Source: Escherichia phage EC150. Taken from it: a stretch of DNA of 64,000 nucleotides. The first letter of the stretch is position 1. Each line of letters opens with the position of its first letter. The stretch is taken from the sequence record ON210137.1. One strand, written 5' to 3'. The position numbers and the translations under genes were made by a program. Shown in pieces: positions 15,567 to 23,987 of this stretch. The notes beneath the pieces were generated by a model, which worked only from the letters and a program-made list of their open reading frames with translations, was not told the origin of the DNA and searched no databases.

Positions 15567-17027
15567 ATGAATAAAATATTAACACATAATTGGAAAGTCA
15601 TGTACCAGTTGAATCCTGCTTTAAGAGAAGTCTGGAAGACGAAAGCGCGATACAAAGTCATATACGGCGGTCGTGCATCTTCCAAATCGCACGATGCCGC
15701 TGGTTTTGCTATTTATTTGGCGGCAAACTTCAAATTAAAATTCCTTTGCGTTCGACAATTCCAGAACAAGATTTCTGAATCAGTATATACGCTATTAAAA
15801 GACAAAATAGAAATTTCTGATTTCAAAGACGAGTTCAACTTATTAAAGAACTCTATTGAACACAAAAGAACAAAATCTGAATTCTTATTTTACGGTATCG
15901 CACGCAACGTTGATGAAATCAAATCAACAGAAGGCGTTGATGTTCTTTGGCTTGAAGAAGCGCATGCGCTGACTGAAGAGCAGTGGGACATCATTGAGCC
16001 GACAATTCGTAAGGAAGGGTCCGAAATATGGATCATATTTAACCCTGATGAAGAGGCTGATTTTGTCTACCAGAACTTTGTCATGCGACCGCCGAAGAAT
16101 GCCATCGTTAAGAAGATTAACTGGCAAGACAACCCATTCTTGTCGCAAACAATGCTGGATGTTATCGCTGGCATGTATGAGCGCGACCCGAAAAAGGCAG
16201 AACACGTTTATGGCGGAGTACCGAAGACTGGCGGCGACAAGTCGGTAATCAACCGTGCATTCGTCAAGGCCGCGCTAAACCTCCACAAACACCCTACGCT
16301 GGGATGGAGCTTGTCAGGGTCTAACCGTATAGGCTTTGACGTGGCGGACGACGGCGACGACTTAAACGCCACAGCATTTGTCACTGGCAACGTATTGCGC
16401 GGCATCAAGACATGGGAAGGTCTGGAGGATGAATTGCTTAAGTCCGCAAGCGGAGTCTGGAAAGACGCATTGACATTCGGCGCATCAATCACCTATGACG
16501 CCATCGGTGTTGGTGCATTTGCTGGTTCAAAATTTGATGAGCTTAATGAGTGTGCAATCCATGAAAATCCAACATTCCCAAGAATCGAATTTAATGCGTT
16601 CAACGCGCAAGGTGCTGTTGATGATCCTGATGACGTTTTCCTTGAGTTACCACACGTTGAAATACTCAATAAAGACCATTTCGCAAACATAAAAGCGCAA
16701 AAATGGACTGAGATTGCCGAACGATTCAGAAAGACATATGAGTATGCGACAGGGCAAGCCGTATATCCGACCGATGAGTTGATTTCCATCGACACAGACG
16801 GCATCCCAGAACTTGGTATTCCCGCTTGGTCTGCGGAAGAGATTGAGACGTTTCTTTTTGAGATGTCAGCGCCGCGCAAAGATACGTCTGTTCTTGGTAA
16901 GTTCAAAGTTGAATCGAAAAAAGATATGGCAAAGCGTGGAGTCAAATCGCCTAACAAAGCGGACGCAGCAATCATGGCATTGATGAAACCAATTGTTGCA
17001 GCATCCGGCTTCTTCTCTAACCTTTAA
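15567..17027 (+). CDS. terL: terminase large subunit
   Basis: 486 aa; Walker A-like GGRASSKS; LWLEEAH Walker B-like; C-terminal nuclease-like region with acidic residues. Confidence 0.9.
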   Translation: MNKILTHNWKVMYQLNPALREVWKTKARYKVIYGGRASSKSHDAAGFAIYLAANFKLKFLCVRQFQNKISESVYTLLKDKIEISDFKDEFNLLKNSIEHKRTKSEFLFYGIARNVDEIKSTEGVDVLWLEEAHALTEEQWDIIEPTIRKEGSEIWIIFNPDEEADFVYQNFVMRPPKNAIVKKINWQDNPFLSQTMLDVIAGMYERDPKKAEHVYGGVPKTGGDKSVINRAFVKAALNLHKHPTLGWSLSGSNRIGFDVADDGDDLNATAFVTGNVLRGIKTWEGLEDELLKSASGVWKDALTFGASITYDAIGVGAFAGSKFDELNECAIHENPTFPRIEFNAFNAQGAVDDPDDVFLELPHVEILNKDHFANIKAQKWTEIAERFRKTYEYATGQAVYPTDELISIDTDGIPELGIPAWSAEEIETFLFEMSAPRKDTSVLGKFKVESKKDMAKRGVKSPNKADAAIMALMKPIVAASGFFSNL

Positions 17028-17030
17028 CAA

Positions 17031-17270
17031 TTAAATCATTCCGTGCTGAAGGTCGAGCTTTCTTGCGGCAAACGACCTGGCACGGAATCGCTTACCCGCC
17101 CTTACTGCCTGTCGAATTTTCTTTTGCAAACACTTACGGTCAAAATCGTTGCGGTCGACGGCTTCGAGTAAATCGCGACGCAGTGCACCCAGTGTCGACT
17201 TTTCGGAGACTTCAACGCCCAGCGCGGCTGCAACATCTTTCAAAACATCGAGTTCGGTTAAAGTTCTCAT
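17031..17270 (-). CDS. small HeH/SAP-like domain protein with basic tail (79 aa)
   Basis: LTELDVLKDVAAALGV...STLGALRRDLLEAV resembles Rho-N/HeH motif; C-terminus Lys/Arg-rich; 4-nt overlap with upstream gene. Confidence 0.45.
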   Translation of the reverse strand: MRTLTELDVLKDVAAALGVEVSEKSTLGALRRDLLEAVDRNDFDRKCLQKKIRQAVRAGKRFRARSFAARKLDLQHGMI

Positions 17271-17683
17271 TTGATAATCCCCTTGATGTCTGATTCTGCC
17301 ATAAAGATTGGAGTGCCGCCGCCAGGAACAATAGAGCGCGTGACCTTGTCAAACATATCGTTTTCTTCAACTTGAATACGATAAAATTTATTTTTGGATG
17401 AAGATGGGCACAATCCCATAAATTTTCCGATGCCGCGAACGCATTCATCTTCAAAGTATACTGTTTCACCTTGAATGGAGTCGATGTCGTCTACTGGATA
17501 GACCTTGCGACCCAATAGCCACTCATCCAAAGTCGCCTGCAAGACGTTGCGCGCATCTAAAATCCACGGGTCAATAGTAGCACCTTCATATCGCGCAGCA
17601 GTGGCCTTTGCCAGTTCTTCATATTCGCATACGTTAACGACTTCGCCGTTGTGCAAGACGACAAATACAATTGTTGTGCTCAT
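17267..17683 (-). CDS. hypothetical protein (138 aa)
   Basis: First gene of a two-gene minus-strand cassette inserted between terminase and portal. Confidence 0.5.
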   Translation of the reverse strand: MSTTIVFVVLHNGEVVNVCEYEELAKATAARYEGATIDPWILDARNVLQATLDEWLLGRKVYPVDDIDSIQGETVYFEDECVRGIGKFMGLCPSSSKNKFYRIQVEENDMFDKVTRSIVPGGGTPIFMAESDIKGIIK

Positions 17684-17778
17684 TTCAATCTCCTTTCGTT
17701 TGGTTAACTAAAATATAACTCAAAATGATACAAAAGCAAAATATTTTATGAACTATTTATGATCACCATACATATCAT

Positions 17779-17807
17779 TTGCTTACAAACACATGAATAT
17801 TTATAAT
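17779..17807 (+). promoter_or_regulatory. sigma70-type promoter upstream of portal gene
   Basis: TTGCTT, 17-bp spacer, TATAAT in the AT-rich divergent intergenic region. Confidence 0.5.
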
Positions 17808-17845
17808 ATAGATTGATTCCCTTTCACTGTCAGGTGGCGTTAACA

Positions 17846-20221
17846 ATGAAAATTCTTGGCATAAAACTCTGGGAGAAGACGCAACCAGAAGCCGAACCAG
17901 CGGAGATGCCGCCAGGCGACCCATTGGCACCGTTTGAACGCCTTGAAAGGCGCGGCAGCGGTCAACGCTGGGAAAAGACTGAAAGCAATCGACCGACCTT
18001 TAAAACGGTTGATGACTTCCCTTTATATGAGCCTGATATTAATGGCGATGGTGTTGCAATCATAAAAGGTCGTTCAGTCGATTCCGCAACAGTATCCAAA
18101 AAGGTTATGGATAATGCCTTAAAGAACATCAGTTCAGAAGGGCAAGTCAACCCATACACAGTACCTATTCAACTTCAAAACTGGTATTTGTCACAGTCAT
18201 TCATCGGCTATCAAGCTTGTGCCATCATCGCACAGCATTGGCTGGTGAACAAGGCATGTTCCATGGTAGGCCGCGATGCGGTCCGTAAAGGTTGGGAAGT
18301 CAAATCCAGTTCTGAGTCAGAATTGTCAGTACAGGCAAGCGAACGCCTAAAGCAAATTGATAAAGAATTTAATATCAAAGAGCACTTAGTTGAAGCCGAA
18401 CGATTCAAAAATATTTTTGGTATCCGCGTCATCATATTTGATGTGCGTAGTGATGACCCAGAATATTACAGCAAGCCTTTTAACATTGATGGTGTGACAA
18501 AGGGGTCTTATAAGGGAATCATTCAGGTTGACCCTTATTGGATGATGCCGTTTCTGACGTCTGAAAACACAGCAGACCCTGCATCACAGCACTTCTATGA
18601 CCCAGAATATTGGGTAATCAGCGGACAACGTTATCATCGCAGCCACCTCATAATCTTGCGCAACGATGAGCCAGCTGATATTCTCAAGCCGACTTATATT
18701 TACGGCGGCATTCCTCTGACTCAGCAGATTTATGAACGCATCTATGCCGCTGAACGTACCGCCAACGAAGCGCCATTGCTGGCGATGTCCAAGCGTACAA
18801 CGACGCTGCGGACCGACGTTGACAAGGCTATTGCCAATGAGCGGTCTTTTGCAGAACGTCTGATGATGTGGATCAAGTACCGCGACAACTATGCAGTCAA
18901 AGTGCTTGGCCAAAAAGAAGAGATGGACCAGTTTGACATCAACTTGTCAGACTTCGACAGCATCATCATGAACCAGTACCAGCTTGTGGCCGCAATCGCA
19001 AAAGTTCCGTCGACCAAACTGCTTGGGACTTCGCCAAAAGGCTTTAACGCCACTGGTGAATTCGAGATGGTCAGCTATCACGAAGAGTTGGAAACGTGCC
19101 AGCAGCATGACCTGACAAAAATTCTCGACCGCCATTACAAAATCCTTCTCAAATCAGAAGGGGTGGATGTCGATGTTAAGGTTGCATGGGAACCAGTTGG
19201 CTCACTTACTGCTACTCAACTTGCAGAAATCAATGATAAGCGAGCCAACACTGGCAAAACTCTTATTGATGCTGGCGTCATTTCTCCTGATGAAGAGCGC
19301 GACCGCATCAAAGACGACAAAAACAGCGGCTACAACCGTCTGCCGGAAGACGCAGCAGAAGAAACCCCAGGGATGTCTCCAGAGAATATGGCATTGCTTG
19401 GCAAGTCTGCTGGTGAAGTCCTGCAAGGTAAGGCCGATATTGAACAGGCGAAAGCTGATGTCGTTAAGATGGGCGGCCAGTTCTATAGCGAAACAGGTAT
19501 TATGCCAGAGGGTGCCGCGCGCGGTGAGTTGGCGGAAAACCCTGACAAAGCGCCTGTCGAAATCAACATGGACGATACCGATGATGAATCGAGCCATCAC
19601 ATTGATGTCCTAACGCAGTTGAAAGAAGGGCTGGAGGGTATTGCGGATTACTACCTGAAAGAAGGTCAGGATGTGGATTTTGACCCTCAAAAAGATTCAC
19701 GGTCGGTGCAACCGTCTACCCTTCCAAGCGTTAAAGGACACGTAGTCAACTTACGCCACAACGTGGGTAAAATGGACGCAGCATCATTACCTAAGATGAA
19801 GTTGCACGGAATGATTCTTGGCATTGAGAATCCGCGAAACAGCATTCGTAGAGGAAACAGCATTGACGGTGAATGGGCCGTGAAGATGCCGCACCACTAC
19901 GGATTCATCAAGGGCACCAAGGGCGCAGACGGTGATGAAGTCGACTGCTTTGTGGGTCCAAATCTGAAGTCGCCGAAAGTCTTTATTGTGAACCAAAACG
20001 ATAACTACTCTGGCGAGTTTGATGAACACAAGTGTATGCTTGGATTCGATTCAGCAGAAGAAGCGAAAGAAGCTTATCAAGCATCATTTGGTAACGGTTG
20101 GAACGGCTTCGACTCAATCCACGAATTAGATGTGAACTCATTCAAGGAGTGGTTGAAGGGTGATTGCTCTCAAGCATACGGAGCACTCAATAATCCTACT
20201 AATTCACCGAAGCAAGGTTGA
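17846..20221 (+). CDS. portal protein with C-terminal inorganic-pyrophosphatase-like extension
   Basis: 791 aa from ATG after AGGTGG; position after terminase; C-terminal ~150 aa contains HYGFIKGTKGADGDEVDCFV, matching the family I pyrophosphatase signature as recalled. Confidence 0.8.
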   Translation: MKILGIKLWEKTQPEAEPAEMPPGDPLAPFERLERRGSGQRWEKTESNRPTFKTVDDFPLYEPDINGDGVAIIKGRSVDSATVSKKVMDNALKNISSEGQVNPYTVPIQLQNWYLSQSFIGYQACAIIAQHWLVNKACSMVGRDAVRKGWEVKSSSESELSVQASERLKQIDKEFNIKEHLVEAERFKNIFGIRVIIFDVRSDDPEYYSKPFNIDGVTKGSYKGIIQVDPYWMMPFLTSENTADPASQHFYDPEYWVISGQRYHRSHLIILRNDEPADILKPTYIYGGIPLTQQIYERIYAAERTANEAPLLAMSKRTTTLRTDVDKAIANERSFAERLMMWIKYRDNYAVKVLGQKEEMDQFDINLSDFDSIIMNQYQLVAAIAKVPSTKLLGTSPKGFNATGEFEMVSYHEELETCQQHDLTKILDRHYKILLKSEGVDVDVKVAWEPVGSLTATQLAEINDKRANTGKTLIDAGVISPDEERDRIKDDKNSGYNRLPEDAAEETPGMSPENMALLGKSAGEVLQGKADIEQAKADVVKMGGQFYSETGIMPEGAARGELAENPDKAPVEINMDDTDDESSHHIDVLTQLKEGLEGIADYYLKEGQDVDFDPQKDSRSVQPSTLPSVKGHVVNLRHNVGKMDAASLPKMKLHGMILGIENPRNSIRRGNSIDGEWAVKMPHHYGFIKGTKGADGDEVDCFVGPNLKSPKVFIVNQNDNYSGEFDEHKCMLGFDSAEEAKEAYQASFGNGWNGFDSIHELDVNSFKEWLKGDCSQAYGALNNPTNSPKQG

Positions 20222-20222
20222 T

Positions 20223-21074
20223 ATGGCTTTTAAAGCTTCGAAAAAACGTGAACGCCGCTCACCCGATAGAGTCGGGCGCGGCAGTCCGATAATCCCATCC
20301 AACGCTATTGCGATGGCCTATCGTCGTGAGATGAAAGGTCTTTGCTATGCGATGATTGACGACTATCAAGCAGGAATTGCTGAGTGGCTTGAAAAGAAGC
20401 AGGTTAAAAAGTTCTTTGCGCAAGACTCTGCTGATTCAACTTTTCAGACCTTGATGAAGCGACTGCAACTGAAATGGGCAAAAGCTTTCGCCCGTGTCGG
20501 GTCAAAGATTGCCGCAGATTTCATCAAGTCAGTTGAAAAGGGCGCCACTTCTGCTACATTTGCAAGTCTTAAATCTGCAGGAATAGAAGCGCCAAAAGCC
20601 ACATATAATAAATTCGTTGAGAACACTCTTAAAACAAGCGAGACGTTCAACACGACTTTAGTGACTAAGGTTGGCGAAGATATTCACAACAGGGTGTACG
20701 AAGCGGTGATGCTTTCGCTGACTTCGCCAGACCCAGCACAACAAGGCACGTCAGGCATTCAGGCGGCATTGCGAAACGTAAAACACTTCTCTGCAAAGAG
20801 AGTCGACTTGATCGCTAAAGACCAGACAAGCAAGTTGTATTGCGTTCTAAGCGATGAAAGGATGCGCCAGAATGGAGTCGAAGAATTTGAGTGGGCGCAC
20901 TCAGGAGCAGGAAAGGAGCCGCGAATCTCTCATGAACACGTCGACGGAATGAGATTCAAACTTGATGACAAGCGCCTATGGGAAGTTGGCGGCGAATTGA
21001 AGTTCAAAAAGGGTGACATCGGTCCTCCTGGATGGGCAATACACTGCAAGTGCAGAAAAATACCAATCATTTGA
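20223..21074 (+). CDS. head morphogenesis protein (MuF/SPP1 gp7-like)
   Basis: Start adjusted to internal ATG right after portal stop; position and length typical of minor head protein. Confidence 0.7.
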   Translation: MAFKASKKRERRSPDRVGRGSPIIPSNAIAMAYRREMKGLCYAMIDDYQAGIAEWLEKKQVKKFFAQDSADSTFQTLMKRLQLKWAKAFARVGSKIAADFIKSVEKGATSATFASLKSAGIEAPKATYNKFVENTLKTSETFNTTLVTKVGEDIHNRVYEAVMLSLTSPDPAQQGTSGIQAALRNVKHFSAKRVDLIAKDQTSKLYCVLSDERMRQNGVEEFEWAHSGAGKEPRISHEHVDGMRFKLDDKRLWEVGGELKFKKGDIGPPGWAIHCKCRKIPII

Positions 21075-21081
21075 GGTCATT

Positions 21082-22002
21082 ATGACGATACCAATCAGCA
21101 CGTTTCCTCTATCTGGACAAACGCCAGTATTGCCTGCTGTATATGCTAACGGTTTGGCGATTGTTTCAGAATTTACATCCGATAAAAACCTGATTGTTCC
21201 ATTGAGTCCGCCATTGGCATCTGGATACAATTCAGTTGGTCAATTCTTTATGATCGGTAATGATGGCGATTCTACCAGCAAGCCGAATCTGACACTTTCA
21301 GTTCCCAAAATGAACATAACAGACGTGCAGACTGGTTTAACTGCATCTACAATCACCATCGCTTTTGGAGAAGCAGTGATTATAGGCATGGAGTCTGGAG
21401 GGTCCAAGAATGCTGTCGCCGTTAAGGTAGTCAAATCCAGCGGCAACCAATACACGTTACCAGCGGCAACGGCTTCTGTTCTCGGCGGCGTCAAGATAGG
21501 AAGTGGCATAAGTGTTGCAGGTGACGGTACAATTAGTGTTACTCAATACTCGTTACCGATTGCATCAGCATCAACCTTGGGTGGCGTAAAAGTAGGAACG
21601 ACACTATCAATTGATGGTTCTGGAGTTCTTAATGCTGCTGCAAGCAATGTGCAAAACACAAGCAATAGTGTAAGCAATCCTCCGACAACTCTGGTGAATC
21701 TGGCAACATTAAACCTGCCTGCAGGGAAATGGCTTGTGACAGCAAGTCAGTTGACTGTCGCAACAGAAGGAGTTCAAGCGAATACCGGAATTACAGTAAA
21801 ATTGTCAACAAGTAATTCAGATATTACGGATGATGCATTCACGATGTCTGCTGGCATTCGGGCTGCAGGTCGTTTCGGCGGCAATATTCCAACAAAGATA
21901 ATTACTCTTGCCGCGCCTGGCAACGTGTATCTAAACTATCAATGCACAGACGCATTGACATCTACCGTTTACGGACAGATCACCGCAATTAAGTTGAACT
22001 AA
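21082..22002 (+). CDS. structural protein with fibre-like repeats (possible head fibre or decoration)
   Basis: Repeated ...A(T/S)AS(V/T)LGGVK(I/V)G... units; Gly/Ser/Thr-rich; GAGG RBS. Confidence 0.55.
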   Translation: MTIPISTFPLSGQTPVLPAVYANGLAIVSEFTSDKNLIVPLSPPLASGYNSVGQFFMIGNDGDSTSKPNLTLSVPKMNITDVQTGLTASTITIAFGEAVIIGMESGGSKNAVAVKVVKSSGNQYTLPAATASVLGGVKIGSGISVAGDGTISVTQYSLPIASASTLGGVKVGTTLSIDGSGVLNAAASNVQNTSNSVSNPPTTLVNLATLNLPAGKWLVTASQLTVATEGVQANTGITVKLSTSNSDITDDAFTMSAGIRAAGRFGGNIPTKIITLAAPGNVYLNYQCTDALTSTVYGQITAIKLN

Positions 22003-22012
22003 AGAGGAAGTT

Positions 22013-22150
22013 ATGCAAAAGATTATGCAGTCACGTTACGTTAAAGTGCGAAATATTAATTGCAACTCTTTGCTTTCTTGGAAATGGGCTGTTTACGACT
22101 CGATGCTGATTGGCGTTTTAGTTGCTGGAGTGCTTTTTAATATTCACTGA
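22013..22150 (+). CDS. small hydrophobic peptide (45 aa)
   Basis: ATG 5 nt after AAGAGGAAG; product has hydrophobic C-terminal half; below the size cut-off of the ORF track. Confidence 0.3.
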   Translation: MQKIMQSRYVKVRNINCNSLLSWKWAVYDSMLIGVLVAGVLFNIH

Positions 22151-22189
22151 ATCGCCTGGCAATGGATTGCCGCAGGATTTCACGCGTAT

Positions 22190-22460
22190 AATGACGTATC
22201 ATCCGTATCAAGTAAGTAGTTGTTTTCAAAAGAATCTTACGGATGATACGGATGATACGCGTTGCCGCGATACTTTATAGGAATTCAAATAAATTAATTT
22301 AAAATTATATATCTAATTTAATTTTATTTTTTTATAAACTCTTATATATGAAAAGTATCCGTATCATCCGTATCATCCGTAGCACACCAGTGATAGCGCG
22401 GCTTATACACCGATACGGATAAAAATACGCCTCATTTTATCCGTATCATCCGTATCACAC
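22190..22460. repeat. repeat-flanked AT-rich element, copy B
   Basis: Tandem and inverted copies of TCATCCGTA / CGTATCATCCGTA around an AT-rich core (22280-22350); homologous to 6210-6575. Confidence 0.6.
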
Positions 22461-22574
22461 TAATTAAGGCGCGCGGCTATATCGGTTGTTATACATATTC
22501 AAACCATAATTATTGTTTGCCTAAGTTTTTTTCATTAGATATAATACACAATACTTATTTGAGGGTGGATGCGA

Positions 22575-23987
22575 ATGCAAACGGCACGCGAAATTGACAA
22601 AAATGGATTCTTGACGATTGTGGGTTGTCCCATTTCGTCATTTGGCATTTTTGATTATTCTGCAGGTCAGGTTGGACTTGATGGTGATCCGAATCGCATC
22701 GTAAAAGTTTATCGCCCAGAGTCAGCGGTGAAAGACCCCGAAGCGATAGATTCATTCAAAAATATCCCTTTCATCGACAATCACGAAATGCTTTCTGGAT
22801 TCGAAGGTGATGAGGATAACACAGCACCCGAAGAGTATGGCGTTGATGGCGTTCTAACTGGCAATGTTTATTATGACAAGCCATGGATGCGCGGCGACCT
22901 TAAAGTTTTTAGCCGTCGTCTGAAGAAAGCCATCGATTCTGGAAAGGTTGACTTGTCTTTGGGCTATGACTGTGAATTCATCATACAGTCTGGAGAGTTT
23001 GACGGGCAGCCGTATGAAGTGGTACAGACAACTCTTCGCGGCAACCACATTGCTCTCGTGGACGTTGGTCGAGTACCAGGTGCACGGGTGCTGGATGGTC
23101 GTTGCTTTGACCATCTTTGTTTGACGACTGTAACACCATCCAACGAGGATTTAGACATGCCAAAACCGTTAAAAGGTAAAGCGCGTGATAATGCTGTTGA
23201 ACAGCTGAAGTCGCTGATCCCTGCGCTCGAACAATTTCTGAATGAAGAGAGCACCGAAGCTGCTCATCAGGACGAAGTTGAAGTGAAAGCAGAAGAGAAG
23301 GATTCAACCGAAGAACGTGAAGAAGTGATGGTTGATCCAGAAGTCAAAGCAGAAGCTGAAGAGACTCCAGAAGGTGAAGAGAAGTTTGAAGTTGAAACTG
23401 AATCTCACGCTGGCGGCGAGCTTCCGCAACTGATCAGCCAAATCGAAGCACTTATTGCAAAACTGAAAGGTGGCGCGGTAGGTGATGAAGAAGAAGTTGA
23501 AGCCGAAGTCAAAGACGAAGAAGTTGAAGTCAAGGCTGAAGATGTATCACCTTGCGACAAAGCTGAAGATGTGGTTAGCGGCCTGCAAAACAGCAACGTA
23601 AAGGGGGCTTCGGTCGAAAAAGATGACAAACCGACAAAAGCGGCGAAAGCGTCGCCAGGTCCAGCAAAAGGGGAACACTCAATGGCATCTGATTCAGCAG
23701 TTGCTGCTTTCTACGCTGATTCTGCTCGTAAGAATAGCCTCTACCAGCGCCTGTCTAAAGTTGTTGGTGCCTTTGATCATGCAACTATGGACTCCAAGTC
23801 CGTAGCGAAATATGGCGCTAAAAAGTTAGGCTTGAAGTGCGTTGATGGTGCTGAGTTTGACGTGGTGGATAATTATCTGCGCGGCGTTGAACACGGTCAA
23901 AAACAGCGTGTAGTCGCAAAACAAAAGGCTGCTGCGGATTCTGCAGCAACTGACGAAGCGTTTGAAGCTTGGTTGAAAGGGGAATAA
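22575..23987 (+). CDS. scaffolding protein (possibly with prohead-protease-like N-terminal domain)
   Basis: Position between head morphogenesis and capsid genes; highly acidic Glu/Val/Lys-rich central region; start adjusted to ATG 6 nt after GAGGGTGG. Confidence 0.55.
   Translation: MQTAREIDKNGFLTIVGCPISSFGIFDYSAGQVGLDGDPNRIVKVYRPESAVKDPEAIDSFKNIPFIDNHEMLSGFEGDEDNTAPEEYGVDGVLTGNVYYDKPWMRGDLKVFSRRLKKAIDSGKVDLSLGYDCEFIIQSGEFDGQPYEVVQTTLRGNHIALVDVGRVPGARVLDGRCFDHLCLTTVTPSNEDLDMPKPLKGKARDNAVEQLKSLIPALEQFLNEESTEAAHQDEVEVKAEEKDSTEEREEVMVDPEVKAEAEETPEGEEKFEVETESHAGGELPQLISQIEALIAKLKGGAVGDEEEVEAEVKDEEVEVKAEDVSPCDKAEDVVSGLQNSNVKGASVEKDDKPTKAAKASPGPAKGEHSMASDSAVAAFYADSARKNSLYQRLSKVVGAFDHATMDSKSVAKYGAKKLGLKCVDGAEFDVVDNYLRGVEHGQKQRVVAKQKAAADSAATDEAFEAWLKGE

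Follow-up and report, generated by a model that had tools for sequence, protein, structure and literature searches.

The InPase domain of phage polyvalent proteins was defined by Iyer, Burroughs, Anand, de Souza, and Aravind (J Bacteriol 2017; PMC5512222), who explicitly reported its fusion to a portal protein in Burkholderia phage BcepF1. Furthermore, portals of the Pseudomonas phages Pa193 and E217 have been solved by cryo-electron microscopy (cryo-EM). Both were modelled to residue 528 of 765, with a barrel of helices that extends into the head, and residues 529-765 'had no discernable density' in the 3.2-3.3 Å maps; neither paper mentions a pyrophosphatase domain (PMC11456595; PMC10329688). 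The present study concerns the portal gene of Escherichia phage EC150 (sequence record ON210137.1), located at positions 17846-20221 of a stretch of 64,000 nucleotides, which is referred to here as the window. Our results indicate that the C-terminus of the encoded protein almost certainly carries an InPase-family domain fused to the portal. The original prediction, made from the DNA letters alone, had proposed a pyrophosphatase-like domain at this position and had stated that no portal-pyrophosphatase fusion was described. The latter statement was wrong, since the BcepF1 protein reported in 2017 is a full-length orthologue of the portal studied here, and the fusion is already known from computational annotation and is widespread. 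The locus therefore contributes little as a discovery: a Pfam entry exists for the domain, the fusion is published, and the genome nearly duplicates those of Wifcevirus phages already sequenced. What interest remains lies solely in the function of the InPase domain, for which we tentatively favour, at a level still short of probable, a pre-made enzyme that travels in the virion and works as infection begins.

In the open reading frame (ORF) listing of the window, the stop-free frame extends on the + strand from a mechanically assigned TTG start at 17813 to 20221. The true start of the portal gene is likely the ATG at 17846, which is preceded by AGGTGG (8 nt before) and is also used in the annotation of phage ManiWeber_Bas99 (Bas99). 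From this start, the product comprises 791 aa and is organized as follows (pLDDT, predicted local distance difference test):

17846-20221, + strand: portal gene encoding 791 aa (plus stop); orthologous over its full length to gp19, the Pa193 portal
17846-18160, + strand: variable N-terminal region (aa 1-105), predicted disordered; conservation 0.33-0.38, pLDDT <50
18209-19249, + strand: portal core (aa 122-468), PF06381 Phage_portal_3; E 3.3e-88, 296 bits vs cutoff 33.8
19379-19495, + strand: long predicted helix (aa 512-550), pLDDT ~60; coincides in part with where the E217 and Pa193 portals have their C-terminal barrel helix
19496-19789, + strand: linker (aa 551-648), for the most part predicted to be disordered but including a predicted helix (aa 580-602); poorly conserved (0.27-0.40)
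19790-20158, + strand: predicted InPase domain (aa 649-771), PF18823, a pared-down OB fold of the pyrophosphatase type; E 3e-46, 157 bits, pLDDT 87.8; fold matches and invariant residues
19928-19948, + strand: DGDEVDC (aa 695-701), match to the family I pyrophosphatase signature
20159-20218, + strand: C-terminal tail (aa 772-791), unconserved (conservation 0.18, gaps 0.47)

The extension of about 250 aa beyond a typical portal, as originally proposed, is real, because the portal profile of Pfam is matched only up to aa 468 and the Pa193 portal is solved only as far as residue 528 of 765. In the full-length structure model, the protein resembles beads on a string, consisting of the core (108-490), a helix (512-550), a disordered stretch (552-579), a second helix (580-602), disorder over roughly 603-648 (within the linker region, disorder was predicted for aa 552-579 and 619-635), and the compact InPase domain (650-771). 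The stretch between aa 500 and 640 is acidic (D+E = 0.21, i.e., 21%), and the segment corresponding to aa 515-650 varies in length between 116 and 165 aa among relatives. PHROG 4660 matches the portal-InPase protein from end to end, and the fusion itself is therefore a recognised phage protein family.

The assignment of the C-terminal domain is carried by profile and fold evidence, both of which had been suggested as checks. PF18823 (InPase) was matched with 157.0 bits (160.1 bits for the isolated C-terminus), far above the cutoff of 26.8, and profile positions 12-135 of 135 were covered. The predicted fold had nothing but family I pyrophosphatases as its top matches in both fold searches and contains the OB-fold (oligonucleotide/oligosaccharide-binding) beta-barrel core of the family I enzyme Ppa. 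In contrast, the pyrophosphatase model PF00719 reached 18.0 and 20.4 bits over 25 residues only (cutoff 23.5), and the Ppa equivalogs of NCBIfam were not reached either (NF002578, 13.9-17.6 bits vs 246; NF002317, 12.3-15.1 bits vs 200). The proposed pyrophosphatase-like domain was thus borne out in its fold and its PF18823 membership, but not as a canonical family I enzyme: judged by these sub-threshold scores and by a length about 50 aa shorter (about 125 aa vs 175 aa in E. coli Ppa, PDB 1ino/1faj), the InPase sequence is not that of a canonical family I Ppa.

The family I pyrophosphatase signature reads D-[SGDN]-D-[PE]-[LIVMF]-D-[LIVMGAC]. DGDEVDC at nt 19928-19948 fits this pattern at exactly the coordinates originally given, and the six reading frames of the 64 kb window contain no second match, compared to 0.0066 matches expected from composition. 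The two peptides quoted in the original prediction, MPHHYGFIKGTKGADGDEVDCFVGP and GEFDEHKCMLGF, correspond to aa 681-705 and aa 723-734 of the portal protein, respectively. The likeness of the first region to the YP.NYG.I...DGDP core of E. coli Ppa, which had been noted originally, was reproduced by HMMER and hhalign: MPHHYGFIKGTKGADGDEVDCFVG aligned to Y51-P74 of Ppa (sequence checked against PDB 1faj/1ino and identical) with 46% identity over 24 residues, comprising the segment YG(Y/F)I...DGD(P/E)VD and including Y55, D65, D67, and D70. For the second region, which had been compared with the GEDAK block of Ppa, the match of GEFDEHK fits the order of secondary-structure elements but was confirmed by no sequence method. 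When the hhalign alignment was extended past these 24 columns (mact 0.05 or 0, or global mode), the added columns had near-zero confidence and placed FDEHK on EYDHIK (116-121), in contradiction to the strand order; they were not used.

Detailed analysis of the residues revealed that E661, N662, R668, W677, Y685, G686, D695, D700, Q717, D726, E727, K729, and Y744 are invariant in 52 portal fusions sharing ~50% identity, and that D697 is kept in at least 90% of them. The same residue columns are invariant in 20 mostly stand-alone InPase homologues. The conserved acidic residues expected for metal coordination (Iyer et al., 2017) are thus present, with E661, D695, D700, D726, and E727 being invariant and D697 nearly so. 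The active site of E. coli Ppa is formed by about 14 residues (E20, K29, E31, R43, Y51, Y55, D65, D67, D70, D97, D102, K104, Y141, and K142). Among these, Y55, D65, D67, and D70 can be equated with confidence, on the basis of the alignment, with Y685, D695, D697, and D700. By the order of secondary-structure elements, E661 (IENP) would correspond to E20 (IEIP), R668 to K29, D726-E727/K729 to E101-D102/K104, and Y744 to Y141; Q717 is found near the position of Ppa D97. No conserved counterpart was seen for E31, R43, or K142, which are phosphate- or metal-binding in Ppa. The spacing between E661 and Y685 is 24 residues vs 35 for E20-Y55, and that between K729 and Y744 is 15 residues vs 37 for K104-Y141. 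The AlphaFold2 model contains a short hairpin at model residues 39-52, while the E661-Y685 region is shorter than in Ppa; the InPase domain has been described as a type I family member without the beta-hairpin of the characterised enzymes (Iyer et al., 2017; PMC5512222).

Given this residue pattern, the InPase domain is fairly likely to be a catalytically active P-O-P hydrolase, which would act in a divalent-metal-dependent manner. Because no counterparts of E31, R43, and K142 were found, its substrate may be inorganic pyrophosphate (PPi) or, possibly, a pyrophosphate-containing nucleotide. The latter case, which overlaps with the pre-made entry enzyme, would make the domain a counter-defence factor hydrolysing an alarmone, an immune signal or its precursor, or an NAD/ADP-ribose derivative. 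Besides the three residues without conserved counterparts, the reduced length of the domain could make room in the site for a bulkier leaving group, and related InPase domains are linked to NUDIX, GNAT, and TmrB genes, for which nucleotide-like substrates were proposed (Iyer et al., 2017; PMC5512222). However, the argument is wholly inferential, the residue mapping depends on alignment and element order, and the literature searched contained no experimental link to any defence system. Family I pyrophosphatases, moreover, are highly specific for PPi. Taken together, a nucleotide substrate appears unlikely.

EC150 belongs to the genus Wifcevirus, comprising Escherichia/Shigella myoviruses of about 68 kb. 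Its portal gene is 99.6% identical at the DNA level to that of Bas99 and 91-99% identical to 27 other records; the match extends over 80% or more of the gene in 28 out of 30 phage records. In Bas99, ECO71P1, and RCIP0319, the annotated portal coding sequence (CDS) comprises 2376 nt. Continuity of the frame, for which a check in independent reads had been recommended, was found in independently sequenced genomes, the CDS being unbroken and of the same length. These data bear on the question of whether a sequencing frameshift or a missed stop has artificially joined two genes, for which it could be argued that distant phages encode the InPase domain as a separate gene right after the portal gene. 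Against an artefact stand the recurrence of the 2376-nt CDS in at least 28 independently sequenced phage genomes, the occurrence of PF06381 plus PF18823 in one chain in all of the best 120 homologues obtained by the full-length search, the length of the Pa193 and E217 portals (765 aa), and peptides from virion mass spectrometry (MS) covering core, linker, and domain. An origin by frameshift or misassembly was rejected in view of the uniform CDS in independent genomes and the one-chain homologues, and practically no weight is left for it.

Presence of the domain in virus particles can be deduced from the work of Necel et al. (2020; PMC7048862), who analyzed CsCl-purified vB_Eco4M-7 and ECML-117, both members of Wifcevirus, by liquid chromatography-tandem MS. 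The peptides in their supplement include, in the numbering of the window, LHGMILGIENPR (aa 653-664), MPHHYGFIK (aa 681-689), GADGDEVDCFVGPNLK (aa 693-708), VFIVNQNDNYSGEFDEHK (aa 712-729), CMLGFDSAEEAK (aa 730-741), and GDCSQAYGALNNPTNSPK (aa 772-789). MPHHYGFIK was represented by 172-174 peptide-spectrum matches, and the peptide 772-789 from the extreme C-terminus was detected in ECML-117 virions. Since domain peptides occur in CsCl-purified virions, the InPase domain is translated and is carried with the virions of two phages of the same genus. Virion MS for the full-length protein, another of the suggested checks, was thus answered in part: the published peptides span the whole polypeptide, whereas the joined state of domain and portal is unreadable from shotgun data.

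The comparison with solved structures places the EC150 protein, by sequence, among the PB1-type portals, as a full-length orthologue of dodecameric portals: Pa193 gp19 (PDB 9b41) was matched with E 8e-251 (aa 14-779 vs 22-763) and E217 gp19 (8fvh) with E 9e-190. Core, barrel, linker, and InPase domain are all matched in the Pbunavirus gp19 portals, the InPase domain with 57% identity, and Wifcevirus and Pbunavirus are recognised distant relatives (BASEL paper). The portal orthologue of SCUT-S1, with 59% peptide coverage, was weakly informative on the C-terminus. A difference was noted at the N-terminus, since the equivalent region of Pa193 (residues 1-93) was unseen in the structure, was not found by liquid chromatography-MS, and may be cleaved (PMC11456595), whereas the N-terminal portal peptides 12-32 and 45-53 were present in Wifcevirus virions. 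The two genera may differ in N-terminal processing of the portal. The InPase family is also carried in the particles of Pbunavirus phages with therapeutic use, and in two high-resolution virion atlases this third of the portal was neither modelled nor mentioned.

As the portal C-terminus points into the capsid, the flexible linker would leave up to 12 copies of the InPase domain per virion tethered beside the portal. This location at the interior portal end, next to a barrel that contacts DNA in E217 (PMC10329688), together with the covalent attachment in up to 12 copies, would also suit a non-enzymatic structural or assembly module of the head, such as a binder of Mg2+ and DNA phosphates, a plug or DNA-end anchor, or an aid to procapsid assembly. 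The conserved gene order portal-InPase-MuF points in the same direction, MuF/gp7-type proteins being portal-associated head proteins. However, the putative metal-binding and catalytic Asp, Glu, Lys, and Tyr do not vary between fused, stand-alone, and polyvalent contexts that diverge widely, a constancy difficult to account for if no chemistry is involved. In addition, the domain has no fixed position in the two 3.2-3.3 Å maps, and most family members reside in large multidomain proteins rather than in portals. A purely structural role is hence considered very unlikely.

The closest previously described fusion, BcepF1 gp124 (YP_001039808.1), shares 53% identity with the EC150 portal over 97% of the query and contains PF06381 followed by PF18823 in the same order, but differs in length (862 aa vs 791 aa) and in its Burkholderia host. 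In total, the InPase domain was found in 470 phage records, including 294 from Pseudomonas, 70 from Vibrio, and 26 from Escherichia phages. An exhaustive profile search assigned 12,078 representative clusters at 50% identity to the family, with most of the best-scoring matches lying inside proteins of 1000-6650 aa; among the matches in BFVD were the portal of a Serratia phage and a number of 'mega' or polyvalent proteins. A homologue search with the domain only had returned 22 short proteins and no portal fusions owing to a word-index limitation, which was corrected by the full-length and profile searches. The EC150 domain belongs to the same family as the PF18823 domains of polyvalent proteins (157 bits), and the invariant E, R, Y, DxDxxD, DE-K, and Y are shared by the aligned stand-alone and portal-fused homologues. 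In contrast to those large multidomain proteins, the portal is its sole partner here. With respect to the definition of polyvalent proteins (Iyer et al., 2017), two domains represent the lower limit, and packaging is supported. The homologue of Luteibacter phage Pluto bears the name 'inorganic pyrophosphatase' in GenBank. A paper on QatABCD co-mentioning pyrophosphatase and Pbunavirus proved to be unrelated.

The head module of EC150 is arranged in the order terminase, portal, MuF, DUF2213, and major head protein. The genes surrounding the portal gene are:

15567-17027, + strand: large terminase gene, upstream of the portal gene; PF04466, E 3e-37
20223-21074, + strand: gene for a MuF-like head morphogenesis protein, whose start lies 2 nt past the portal stop; PF04233, 31.1 bits vs 29.6; phrog_324
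22569-23987, + strand: DUF2213/Pa193_gp24-type gene; head maturation protease according to PHROGs, putative scaffold according to the Pa193 authors (PMC11456595)

Six stand-alone InPase genes could be located on contigs, and four of the six were found directly downstream of a PF06381 portal gene. In these distant phages, the order of portal and InPase and the invariant residues are the same as in EC150, but InPase forms a separate gene. The portals have 474-545 aa and are about 20% identical to the EC150 portal, and the InPase genes encode 142-148 aa. Three of the four split loci have a MuF gene close behind, either at once or with at most one small ORF in between:

L002, 4298-7402: InPase in another reading frame than the portal (tblastn), with an 89-aa ORF between the two genes; MuF close behind
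L004, 4367-7316: InPase in another reading frame than the portal (tblastn), with an ATGA stop-start overlap; MuF close behind
L007, 2376-4429: portal gene followed by InPase gene; MuF not close behind
L008, 2575-5527: portal gene followed by InPase gene; MuF close behind

These loci downstream of PF06381 portals indicate, at the level of gene arrangement, that the position of InPase right after the portal gene is old, usually with MuF close behind, and that the fusion is specific to the PB1-like lineage. At a further locus (L003:2549-6726), a 241-aa stand-alone InPase is encoded directly downstream of DarA_N genes (P1-type internal head/antirestriction proteins) and near a LydB-like gene, and one of the six genes had no informative neighbours. 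Furthermore, PF03496 was flagged in five relatives of 1191-1321 aa (P0037, P0044, P0124, P0096, and P0109), which are about 52% identical. For P0037, P0044, and P0124, Pfam coordinates gave the order portal, InPase, 250-370 unassigned residues, and a C-terminal ADP-ribosyltransferase (ART) exoenzyme (PF03496). A placement of the ART between portal and InPase domain was considered and discarded, as these coordinates put it at the extreme C-terminus, after InPase. Judging from this domain order, the tail of the portal seems to offer a site at which effector-type enzymes can be added.

The genomic context also bears on the possibility that InPase acts late, as a clearer, in the producing cell, of the PPi that arises from very rapid DNA and RNA synthesis by the phage, either free or on procapsids permeable to small molecules, its presence in virions being a by-product of the attachment to the portal. 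PPi clearance is among the options named by Iyer et al. (PMC5512222), and Wifcevirus phages have been reported to replicate unusually fast (BASEL paper). Moreover, the domain is covalently tethered to a protein that never leaves the particle, no cleavage was seen, and stand-alone InPase genes in a head module would be expressed late anyway. However, a portal fusion has no obvious benefit for a soluble housekeeping activity, and family members cluster in giant polyvalent proteins associated with virions and beside genes for internal head proteins. E. coli, in addition, already has its own abundant and essential Ppa. The ADP-ribosyltransferase added in relatives, a typical injected effector, likewise argues against clearance of PPi, and this explanation is regarded as rather unlikely.

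The pre-made, virion-carried enzyme is favoured by the polyvalent, DarA-neighbour, and ART-extended contexts, and the same inference, a pre-made enzyme used on host entry, was drawn by Iyer et al. (2017; PMC5512222). The placement of four of six stand-alone InPase genes right behind a portal gene speaks for a functional link to the head module. The InPase domain would act on entry into the host, like internal head proteins and polyvalent proteins. Comparable enzymes carried in the head for host entry are the T4 Alt ADP-ribosyltransferase, P1 DarA/DarB, and MuF-effector fusions (Iyer et al., 2017; PMC5512222); unlike these, which are free or released in the head, the InPase domain is covalently joined to the portal. 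The ~110 linker residues span at most ~400 Å even when fully extended, compared to a tail of 1300-1500 Å with a lumen of ~37 Å, so that for delivery the domain would have to be released by proteolysis and probably unfolded. The releasing protease might be provided by the sole candidate in the head module, the DUF2213/Pa193_gp24-type gene at 22569-23987. Release of the domain and its delivery into the host are possible, at somewhat less than an even balance.

Several observations weigh against the pre-made entry enzyme. The lumen of the Pa193 tail tube (~37 Å) is tight for a folded domain of 15 kDa (PMC11456595). The portal remains in the particle, and cleavage from it finds no support in virion MS, where the linker peptides 499-520, 550-568, and 606-616 fit an intact chain; shotgun MS, for its part, is unable to separate an intact chain from one that is cleaved but retained. 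As just 24 columns align confidently to E. coli Ppa, most of the residue equivalences had to be inferred. Finally, the literature searched contained no report of an enzymatic activity of the InPase domain, and only the computational paper of Iyer et al. (2017) turned up.

In a bolder version of the entry enzyme, the portal-tethered InPase would act on a substrate other than bulk PPi, such as a pyrophosphate-containing nucleotide signal or an alarmone, would be freed by the DUF2213-type protease or at ejection, and would serve as a counter-defence or takeover factor within the first seconds of infection. This combination is distinctly unlikely, yet, if true, a function would be assigned to a family of about 12,000 protein clusters, and the 237 unresolved portal residues of therapeutic Pbunavirus phages would be explained. 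With the domain in purified virions, invariant residues of catalytic type, split and fused forms, and ART-extended relatives, a direct experiment is easy to design in a K-12-compatible phage, e.g., Bas99, whose growth on E. coli K-12 devoid of cryptic prophages is known.

Some further observations were made in the neighbourhood of the portal gene. PHROG 30637 (1119 positions) matches both the portal core (positions 2-260; window 17846-20218) and the DUF2213 protein (positions 776-899; window 22569-23984), which implies that in some phages portal and DUF2213 (protease or scaffold) form a single polypeptide. The start of the MuF gene is annotated inconsistently across the genus: the mechanical ORF begins with GTG at 20160 and overlaps the portal end by 62 nt, this long form is used in ECO71P1 and RCIP0319, and Bas99 uses the ATG at 20223. 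A split portal, suggested by '(x2)' annotations in two GenBank records, turned out to be the portal CDS plus the overlapping long start of the MuF gene.

Between terminase and portal, two small overlapping ORFs (79 and 138 aa; 17031-17683, - strand) lie opposite to the strand of the head module; they are annotated as hypothetical in Bas99, and their sole PHROG match was marginal. In the window (1-64000), ARAGORN predicted neither tRNA nor tmRNA genes, and none of the Rfam families attained the gathering score. Promoter and terminator scans of 17000-22700 gave site counts at chance level. The region 22003-22568 (about 560 nt), between the fiber-like and the DUF2213 genes, contains only a 45-aa ORF in the Bas99 annotation, and holds a terminator-like hairpin on the + strand (22112-22134) and a promoter-like site (22517-22545). 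The ORF at 21013-22002 (+ strand), located within the head module and named 'tail fiber protein' in Bas99, carries two copies of a motif, LPAATASVLGGVKIG and LPIASASTLGGVKVG. It had weak PHROG matches only, to tail, tail-fiber, and head-fiber families, and may encode, instead of a tail fiber, a fiber or decoration protein of the head.

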